Notes: a model not told the origin generated them from the letters alone. A DNA stretch of 64,000 nt from Escherichia coli (GCF_024298765.1 NZ_CP101210.1), one strand, 5' to 3'; positions 42,858-44,552 are shown, counted from the first letter of the stretch. Program-made: numbers and translations.

Positions 42858-44552
42858 GTGCAGCACGAGACAAAAATGGAAAACCAGAGCTGGTTGAAAA
42901 AACTCGCACGCCGCCTGGGGCTTGGTCATATCGTTAATCTCTGCTTTATCGTGGTATTGCTTTTTTCCACCTTGCTGACCTGGCGTGAAGTGGTAGTGCT
43001 GGAAGATGCCTATATCTCCAGCCAGCGTAATCATCTGGAAAACGTAGCCAACGCGCTCGATAAGCATTTGCAGTATAACGTCGACAAACTGATCTTTTTG
43101 CGTAATGGCATGTGCGAGGCTCTCGTAGCGCCACTGGATTTCACCTCTCTGCGTGATGCTGTAACCGAGTTCGAACAGCATCGCGACGAGCACGCCTGGC
43201 AAATCGAACTCAACCGACGACGCACCCTGCCAGTCAATGGCGTGTCGGATGCATTAGTCAGCGAGGGGAATCTCCTGTCTCGCGAAAATGAAAGCCTCGA
43301 CAATGAAATTACCGCTGCACTGGAAGTTGGTTACTTGCTGCGACTGGCACACAACTCCTCGTCGATGGTAGAACAGGCGATGTATGTCTCGCGTGCCGGA
43401 TTTTACGTTTCGACGCAGCCGACCTTGTTTACGCGCAATGTTCCAACGCGTTATTACGGCTATGTCACCCAACCCTGGTTTATTGGCCATTCACAACGAG
43501 AAAATCGTCACCGCGCGGTACGCTGGTTCACTTCGCAACCGGAACACGCCAGCAATACTGAACCGCAGGTTACCGTCAGTGTTCCGGTAGACAGTAATAA
43601 CTACTGGTATGGCGTGCTGGGGATGAGTATTCCCGTGCGTACTATGCAGCAATTTTTAAGAAACGCCATCGATAAAAACCTCGATGGTGAGTATCAGCTC
43701 TATGACAGTAAGCTGAGATTTTTGACCTCTTCCAATCCTGACCATCCAACAGGGAATATTTTTGATCCTCGTGAACTGGCCTTGCTGGCGTAGGCAATGG
43801 AACATGACACGCGGGGCGGCATTCGTATGGACAGTCGCTATGTTAGCTGGGAACGTCTGGACCATTTCGACGGTGTGCTGGTGCGCGTCCATACGTTAAG
43901 CGAAGGCGTGCGCGGCGATTTCGGCAGTATCAGCATTGCATTAACCCTGCTGTGGGCGCTCTTTACCACCATGTTACTCATCTCCTGGTATGTGATTCGC
44001 CGGATGGTCAGCAACATGTATGTTCTGCAAAGTTCGTTGCAGTGGCAGGCGTGGCACGACACCTTAACCCGTTTATATAATCGTGGCGCACTGTTCGAAA
44101 AAGCCCGTCCGCTCGCTAAATTGTGTCAGACGCACCAACATCCTTTTTCTGTCATTCAGGTCGATCTTGACCATTTTAAAGCGATTAATGACCGCTTTGG
44201 TCATCAGGCGGGCGACCGTGTTCTTTCTCATGCTGCCGGATTAATTAGCAGTTCCTTGCGTGCGCAGGACGTTGCCGGGCGGGTCGGTGGTGAGGAGTTT
44301 TGTGTGATTCTGCCAGGCGCGAGTCTGACGGAGGCTGCGGAAGTCGCAGAACGTATTCGCCTGAAGTTAAATGAAAAAGAGATGTTGATTGCTAAGAGTA
44401 CGACGATACGCATCAGTGCCTCGTTGGGGGTAAGTAGCAGCGAGGAAACCGGTGATTATGATTTTGAACAATTCCAGTCACTGGCCGACCGTCGGCTTTA
44501 TCTCGCTAAACAGGCTGGGCGTAATCGGGTATTCGCGAGCGATAACGCTTAA
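42858..44552 (+). pseudogene. dgcQ: Diguanylate cyclase DgcQ (YedQ) interrupted by in-frame amber codon TAG at 43791-43793
   Basis: Two ORFs in the same frame separated by one TAG; GGEEF motif downstream of the stop. Confidence 0.8.

Follow-up and report, generated by a model that had tools for sequence, protein, structure and literature searches.

The stretch of Escherichia coli DNA analysed here (GCF_024298765.1, NZ_CP101210.1), in the following called the window, has a length of 64,000 nucleotides and contains the gene dgcQ (yedQ). The gene order dcm-vsr-yedA-yedI-yodC-dgcQ-yedP-yodD-dsrB-rcsA-fliR is that of K-12 and was the same in all related genomes inspected. In E. coli, about a dozen c-di-GMP synthases, DgcQ among them, balance biofilm formation (cellulose) against motility, and nonsense alleles in the genes of such synthases are part of the strain-to-strain rewiring of this network. 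The features of the gene are listed below.

42858..44552, plus strand: dgcQ (yedQ) frame, 564 codons, with a GTG start and one internal amber codon
42858..43793, plus strand: upstream ORF, 311 codons followed by the TAG; encodes the first transmembrane segment (TM1, approximately residues 22-42) and most of the periplasmic domain, without TM2 or GGDEF
42978..43538, plus strand: Pfam CHASE7 periplasmic sensor domain, residues 41-227 (PF17151, E = 6.8e-95, full-length match 1-187 of 187)
43791..43793, plus strand: amber codon TAG, codon 312, beginning at gene nucleotide 934
43797..43799, plus strand: ATG (Met314), 3 nt past the stop, in TAGGCAATG; candidate start codon for termination-reinitiation
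43797..44552, plus strand: downstream ORF, 251 codons to the normal stop; encodes a 43-residue periplasmic stub, TM2 and an intact GGDEF domain
43926..43997, plus strand: second transmembrane segment (TM2), approximately residues 357-380 (Kyte-Doolittle, 19-residue window), followed by RR on the cytoplasmic side
44049..44528, plus strand: GGDEF domain, residues 398-557 (PF00990, E = 1.1e-46)

The frame runs from the GTG at 42858 to the TAA at 44550-44552 and contains exactly one internal stop, on which the sequence, the ORF list and the translation agree. In K-12 MG1655 (b1956) codon 312 is CAG and encodes Gln. The two genes are 98.3% identical at the nucleotide level, and their 29 nucleotide differences fall in 29 codons. 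Most of these differences (23) are synonymous; the six non-synonymous ones include the stop and are otherwise five amino-acid changes. The assignment to dgcQ is based on the position between yodC and yedP, the presence of CHASE7 and GGDEF domains, two transmembrane segments, and the catalytic motif together with the I-site. Only the uninterrupted ORF of 564 codons expected of an orthologue is missing, due to the TAG at codon 312. An earlier reading of this DNA, made from the sequence alone, had already named the gene dgcQ, which is confirmed by the synteny, the identity to K-12 and the Pfam domains. It had further described the frame as open save for one TAG at 43791-43793, the corresponding K-12 codon as a sense codon, and a Met as lying two codons past the stop; all three descriptions hold. 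K-12 DgcQ and its Salmonella orthologue are CHASE7-GGDEF membrane diguanylate cyclases which regulate cellulose, and a pathway with L-arginine as ligand is reported for the Salmonella protein. The window frame encodes the same domains. In contrast to the intact K-12 protein, however, the frame is broken at codon 312, and sensor, TM2 and GGDEF domain are not encoded as one chain.

Position of the stop codon in the protein

The Pfam search was run on the conceptual read-through protein. Within the GGDEF domain both the GGEEF active-site motif (residues 477-481, nucleotides 44286-44300) and the RxxD I-site (RAQD, residues 468-471) are intact. The periplasmic region covers approximately residues 43-356, and the stop lies inside this region. 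It is 85 residues away from the last residue of the Pfam CHASE7 match, and TM2 follows 45 residues further on. The sequence-only reading had placed the stop between the sensory domain and TM2-GGDEF. This is correct in so far as the stop precedes TM2 and the GGDEF domain, but it falls within the periplasmic region and not at a domain boundary.

When aligned with 24 orthologues (Escherichia, Citrobacter, Salmonella, Enterobacter), the protein shows variation at residue 312 (Q/H/N/R/E/A). Conservation is lacking at Met314 too; this Met is already present in K-12, and M, I or V occupy this position in other genera. The best-conserved stretch of the periplasmic region in this alignment comprises residues 317-356, which are encoded past the stop.

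No relative of the periplasmic part was found in the PDB by sequence. An AlphaFold model was calculated from a 25-sequence alignment (mean pLDDT 65, approximately 64-79 over residues 240-350) and was used for the order of secondary-structure elements only; a single-sequence model of DgcQ, with a pLDDT of 42, was useless. In the alignment-based model the stop is located at the end of a helix (residues 304-314) and ahead of three strands (residues 319-324, 327-333 and 339-345) which lead into TM2, the latter being covered by a helix of residues 354-393. With moderate confidence, the model thus suggests that the amber mutation cuts through an alpha/beta module rather than neatly detaching the sensor.

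A break between a helix and the strands of the same module, with the best-conserved periplasmic stretch on its far side, would fit the idea that the 311-residue and 251-residue fragments reassemble in the membrane and that the C-terminal strands complete the periplasmic fold, which would give a regulated enzyme. Such a split-protein complementation is however purely speculative. The confidence of the model is moderate, and the complementation would require efficient restart as well as translocation of the N-terminal tail, for which DgcQ offers no precedent. We regard it as extremely improbable.

Distribution of the amber codon in E. coli genomes

The genome collection searched holds 5426 complete genomes of E. 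coli, of which 206, among them 55989 and O104:H4, contain the exact 81-mer around the TAG. A 41-mer was centred on the codon, so that the 28-nt megablast seed must span it and every match carries the TAG. This 41-mer was found in 209 of the 5426 genomes (approximately 4%), in all cases on the chromosome, while its CAG version is present in 3993. Such a comparison had been named in the sequence-only reading as a way to check its proposal; K-12 and most E. coli have CAG at this codon.

The carriers of the TAG include O104:H4 outbreak isolates, the enteroaggregative (EAEC) strain 55989, HUSEC2011, VR50, AR_452 and many APEC O78 strains. As wild isolates they come from poultry, pigs, dogs, humans and water. 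In all seven carriers whose annotation was inspected (AR_452, 55989, VR50, strain 'ST648', APEC O2-211, BHUCD01 and E371) PGAP labels the gene as a pseudogene with an internal stop. In having an in-frame stop relative to intact orthologues and in being annotated in this way, dgcQ of these genomes resembles a nonsense-type pseudogene. The sequence-only reading had left the choice between a natural pseudogene, a sequencing error and a strain marker of an amber-suppressor background, of which the first turns out to be the right one.

Sequencing and assembly errors typically appear as a change of one base, and by its form alone, as such a difference from K-12, the TAG of the window could be one. 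Against this, the identical TAG was found in 209 independent complete genomes from many laboratories, it is located on a haplotype otherwise identical to that of the window, and published targeted resequencing confirmed it in three strains. An error can thus be excluded with near certainty.

The resequenced strains belong to the published record of the allele. Richter et al. (2014, EMBO Mol Med, PMC4287979) list in their Table S1 the change yedQ 934 CAG(Q) to TAG(STOP) for 55989, HUSEC041 and LB226692 and mark it as 'Confirmed'. A JBC 2024 article on Shigella diguanylate cyclases (PMC11327459) reports, with reference to Povolotsky & Hengge 2016, that six or more EAEC strains have a stop at codon 312 and an AUG at codon 314. 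The alleles of EAEC 55989, HUSEC041 and O104:H4 share with the window the same nucleotide change, the same codon, the same TAGGCAATG context and the same downstream ORF. Judged by its sequence, the window allele is the published yedQ 934 C>T (Q312amber), because position 43791 is gene nucleotide 934, the context is the same and the flanking haplotype is shared. It represents an already known lineage marker and not a discovery.

In the protein collection, at least 1000 contigs carry the exact 311-residue product and at least 1000 the exact 251-residue product, for which O104:H4 GenBank records use the name 'putative diguanylate cyclase YedQ'. Many records call two separate genes (311 and 251 amino acids), a mis-annotation which can be avoided once the stop is known to be an inherited marker. 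Gene callers sometimes start the downstream ORF at GTG340 (product P0003).

Since an amber codon may be read in a suppressor background, we also looked for suppressor alleles. The supE-type glnV (CTA) 41-mer matched 157 genomes, and all 60 among the matches listed are K-12 laboratory derivatives, including C600, DH5alpha, DH1, J53 and NCM3722. The supF-type tyrT/V 41-mer matched one genome, which is a laboratory strain. Within the 64-kb window none of the glnV, tyrT and serU loci was found; the four tRNAs called there by ARAGORN are prophage-borne and have the anticodons CAT, TTT, TGT and TCC. As the TAG carriers are wild isolates, whereas the supE and supF matches listed are laboratory strains, the idea that the TAG marks an amber-suppressor strain is very unlikely.

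A related reading assumes that full-length DgcQ is still made in useful amounts in this background, either by readthrough of the UAG or by means of an amber-suppressor tRNA. Near-cognate decoding of UAG by tRNA-Gln inserts Gln and would restore the wild-type residue, but wild-type E. coli reads through UAG at a very low basal rate. Readthrough was mentioned as a possibility by Richter et al. (PMC4287979). However, the carriers come from many hosts in the wild, the suppressor alleles were seen in laboratory strains among the matches listed, and the window is devoid of the suppressor loci searched for, all of which makes a useful production of the full-length protein highly improbable.

Haplotypes and origin of the allele

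Between 28.5 and 53.5 kb the backbone of the window is near-identical, with few mismatches, to about 145 genomes of the clade which comprises strain 104, 14EC020, APEC O78:H4, APEC O2-211 and AR_452. The only difference within dgcQ between the window and the APEC O78/strain 104 clade is a private synonymous G at 43118, which occurs in no genome of the collection. The prophage in the first 25 kb of the window is closest to that of strain CH4799, whose backbone differs and whose dgcQ is intact.

The comparison with the second group of carriers gave a different picture. Relative to 55989 and VR50 the window has 67 differing sites within 39965-43370 and then three up to 47832. Within dgcQ, 13 differences from 55989 are located upstream of 43371, followed by none at all from 43371 to 44575 and by at most two per kb over the next 20 kb. 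Counting the differences per kb over 36 kb delimits one divergent block:

33000..43370, no strand: divergent block of approximately 10.4 kb between the window and the 55989/O104:H4 haplotype

The block contains hprS, hchA, an ompC-like porin gene, drpB, yedJ, dcm, vsr, yedA, yedI, yodC and the 5' 513 nt of dgcQ. Its divergence peaks in the ompC-like porin gene with 121 differences in one kb. Both flanks are near-identical, the left one from 28.2 to 33 kb and the right one, with zero to two differences per kb, from 43.37 kb to the end of the window, and the right edge of the block lies inside dgcQ, upstream of the TAG. The TAG of the window is thus located on another 5' haplotype than that of EAEC 55989, namely on the one of the APEC O78/strain 104/AR_452 clade, which is not EAEC. 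The published descriptions of Q312amber (PMC4287979, PMC11327459), in their passages on this allele, place it in EAEC/O104:H4 only.

From 43371 onwards, across the TAG and as far as the end of dgcQ, the haplotypes of window type and 55989 type do not differ at any site, which indicates that both share the TAG segment by descent and that the TAG had a single origin. Later, a recombination event replaced the 5' part of dgcQ and about 10 kb upstream of it in one of the two groups, while the TAG-bearing 3' part was spared. A Dcm hotspot, at which deamination of 5-methylcytosine generates amber codons, was considered and rejected. The ancestral sequence at the mutated site is GCGCAGGC, and the mutated C is part of GCAGG, not of CCAGG, and is therefore not the inner C of a CCWGG site. 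This non-hotspot context fits a single origin. An independent recurrence of the TAG in BHUCD01 was rejected as well, as this strain has the 55989-type haplotype.

No intact copy of the whole-gene haplotype of the window was found in the collection; a query reverted to CAG gave no match closer than the TAG alleles. The same 3' haplotype with CAG is present in only two genomes, both from one Hungarian study. These two carry the 55989-type 5' part and have seven differences from 55989 over 8 kb. The ancestral form may have survived in them, or they may be revertants. With 209 genomes to 2, the TAG form of the 3' haplotype outnumbers the CAG form. This excess can be explained by clonal expansion of the carriers and does not demonstrate selection.

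Taken at the level of the locus, the TAG is a cheap marker which joins the EAEC/O104:H4 group with an avian, porcine and human extra-intestinal clade at dgcQ. What the haplotypes and the recombination tell about the allele, together with its wider host range, adds modestly to what was known about it.

Proposed translational restart and function of the predicted products

We consider it very probable that the window carries a natural, vertically inherited nonsense allele of dgcQ, with loss of the full-length protein and some restart. A single C-to-T transition at gene nucleotide 934 changed Gln312 (CAG) to amber (TAG). The allele arose once and is now found in two successful groups of E. coli, namely the EAEC 55989/O104:H4 group with some relatives and the clade of APEC O78, strain 104 and AR_452 type. 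Ribosomes are expected to terminate at UAG312 and to release a 311-residue fragment consisting of TM1 and an incomplete periplasmic domain. Without the last conserved strands of this domain, the fragment would probably be unstable. The full-length, sensor-coupled DgcQ would be lost apart from trace near-cognate readthrough, and a loss of normal DgcQ signalling is, going by the sequence, highly probable.

Because the AUG is located only 3 nt past the stop, some of the terminating ribosomes probably reinitiate at AUG314 without a Shine-Dalgarno sequence, which would give a 251-residue protein. This product would have to export an N-terminal tail of 43 residues which is rich in charges (six Arg/Lys, eight Asp/Glu), while the RR after TM2 would stay cytoplasmic. 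It would also carry three orphan beta-strands, for which the model has a pLDDT of approximately 64-79. By our estimate, any activity of the restart product would be deregulated and minor at best.

The arrangement TAG GCA ATG, with its spacer of 3 nt, provides the close start codon expected for termination-reinitiation. Across the gene, the anti-Shine-Dalgarno duplex energies revealed no Shine-Dalgarno sequence before ATG314. The duplex predicted for the 25 nt upstream of it has -3.2 kcal/mol, which is weaker than at 64% of the in-frame positions (mean -4.3), compared to -9.9 kcal/mol at the annotated GTG start. A somewhat better match, of -7.4 kcal/mol, precedes Met324. No promoter-like site was found near the downstream ORF. 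A Shine-Dalgarno-like element enhances restart but is not strictly required, and classical restarts after amber codons are known from lacI and T4 rIIB, where they proceed by termination-reinitiation or by 'scanning' reinitiation. The dgcQ case resembles them in having a start codon a few nucleotides from a premature stop in a translated mRNA, a situation in which no strong Shine-Dalgarno sequence is needed. In contrast to lacI and T4 rIIB, however, the dgcQ restart is a candidate known from the sequence, and without a Shine-Dalgarno sequence the efficiency is usually low. The lack of this element thus argues against an efficient restart, and we would give a detectable restart product roughly even chances.

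The idea of a restart, which was also put forward in the sequence-only reading, is a published hypothesis. Richter et al. (PMC4287979) proposed it for the ATG in TAGGCAATG and considered an efficient restart likely; it is reasonable, though unproven. The closest experimental case is that of the same gene in S. flexneri 2457T (S2095), which has a stop at codon 56 and a Met at codon 59 and which on pET overexpression yielded two protein bands and raised c-di-GMP (PMC11327459). In both alleles a nonsense codon interrupts the frame ahead of the GGDEF domain, and a Met follows within a few codons. They differ in that the S. flexneri restart product keeps almost the whole sensor, whereas that of the window would lose it, and the S. 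flexneri evidence refers to overexpression and not to native expression levels. For the restart product of the window, a physiologically meaningful activity appears unlikely.

An effect on cellulose, as suggested in the sequence-only reading, is not supported by the published phenotypes. Strains 55989 and HUSEC041 both carry the TAG and still make cellulose, so that these two strains can do without full-length DgcQ in making it, and the cellulose defect of the outbreak strain was attributed to bcsE.

It has to be weighed whether the allele was nevertheless kept or even favoured in pathogenic clones, as an adaptive rewiring in which restart at Met314 gives a sensor-less, membrane-anchored GGDEF protein whose c-di-GMP output is altered, either constitutive or unregulated. 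The position of the ATG 3 nt past the stop and the intact GGEEF motif and I-site would allow this, the TAG allele exceeds its intact sister haplotype 100-fold in frequency, and the 28 carriers among the matches listed all have the same 3' ORF. Moreover, the dgcQ, dgcE and dgcN genes of S. flexneri with stops ahead of the GGDEF domain still raised c-di-GMP (PMC11327459), and efficient restart at Met314 was, as mentioned, thought likely by Richter et al. (PMC4287979). Against this, hitch-hiking in expanding clones can account for the frequency. The flanking 20 kb are also about 99.9% identical, and at a background divergence of about 0.1% an unchanged 3' ORF fits purifying selection and youth alike and is uninformative. 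Met314 is already present in K-12 and hence no compensatory change, it is not preceded by a Shine-Dalgarno sequence, and GGDEF enzymes have to form dimers, a step which the sensor and TM module normally drives. The carrier E371 has an ISVsa5 insertion in dgcQ besides the TAG, and the gene is broken independently in other lineages, as seen from frameshifted or IS-fused products (P0034, P0058, P0084). These insertions and frameshifts suggest that dgcQ is dispensable. On balance an adaptive rewiring seems unlikely, and the loss of the full-length protein by an inherited nonsense allele is the reading which we prefer.

Unlikely as well is the more specific proposal of a maintained 'sensor-amputated' cyclase. 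It would be produced by a Shine-Dalgarno-independent restart at AUG314, possibly be complemented by the 311-residue fragment, provide deregulated c-di-GMP, and the allele would have entered several epidemiologically successful lineages, of the O104:H4/EAEC, APEC O78 and AR_452 types, and been favoured there. If it were true, the success of these lineages with such a cyclase would explain the excess of 209 genomes to 2. An active restart product would in addition be, after those of Shigella, another 'pseudogene' diguanylate cyclase which is still signalling, a question that was raised in 2014.

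Further changes in dgcQ and starts beyond the amber codon

The diguanylate cyclase gene dgcQ of the window carries, besides the amber codon, a private synonymous G at 43118, by which codon 87 reads GAG and not GAA. This G is absent from all of the closest genomes inspected, and none of the genomes in the collection of 5426 complete E. coli genomes contains a gene which matches the dgcQ of the window at 100%.

Downstream of the stop two further in-frame starts are found in addition to Met314, the candidate restart codon two codons behind the amber codon, namely Met324 (window 43827) and GTG340 (window 43875). 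The Shine-Dalgarno-like match of Met324 (-7.4 kcal/mol) is better than that of Met314, and GTG340 is taken as the start of the open reading frame by gene callers on 147 contigs (protein collection entry P0003). A restart, if there is any, may not be confined to Met314.

One carrier of the same amber codon, E371, contains an extra ISVsa5 (IS4-like) insertion in dgcQ (L013, 1090-2415), located 5' of the amber codon at about window position 43646, which is a case of secondary gene decay. In other E. coli lineages dgcQ is independently disrupted (protein collection entries P0034, P0050, P0058 and P0084). The changes are frameshifts, one behind residue ~427 and one behind residue ~328, an insertion behind residue ~263 and an upstream frame fusion. 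Inactivation of dgcQ recurs across the species.

The prophage at the window start

The first ~27 kb of the window are occupied by a lambdoid prophage, whose insertion site adjoins yodB.

1-27400: prophage genes for RusA, Q antiterminator, lysis, terminase, HK97-type head, tail, gpJ, Lom and tail fibre
1130-1439: four closely spaced tRNAs 3' of Q, anticodons CAT, TTT, TGT and TCC (ARAGORN)

Window 1-25000 is ~99.96% identical to a prophage of strain CH4799 (NZ_CM166346.1, L008), a human isolate from Sweden, in whose prophage PGAP annotates only two (tRNA-Ile and tRNA-Thr) of the four tRNAs which ARAGORN calls in the window. The chromosomal backbone of CH4799 is unlike that of the window and its dgcQ is intact, so that unrelated backgrounds carry the same phage at the same site.

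Recombination block and IS elements

Divergence from the enteroaggregative strain 55989 peaks, with 121 differences per kb, in an ompC-like porin gene (window 36000-37700), which is the core of the ~10-kb recombination block (33000-43370). The porin gene of 55989 contains a frameshift, and IS30, IS600 and IS1 elements flank it. A segment of 868 bp (60989-61856) has no counterpart in 55989.

Within 60989-61856, minus strand: transposase encoded by two ORFs (86 aa; 166 aa)

Such a pair of transposase ORFs is typical of a small IS5-family element, and IS200/IS605-like sequences are already present in the surrounding region.
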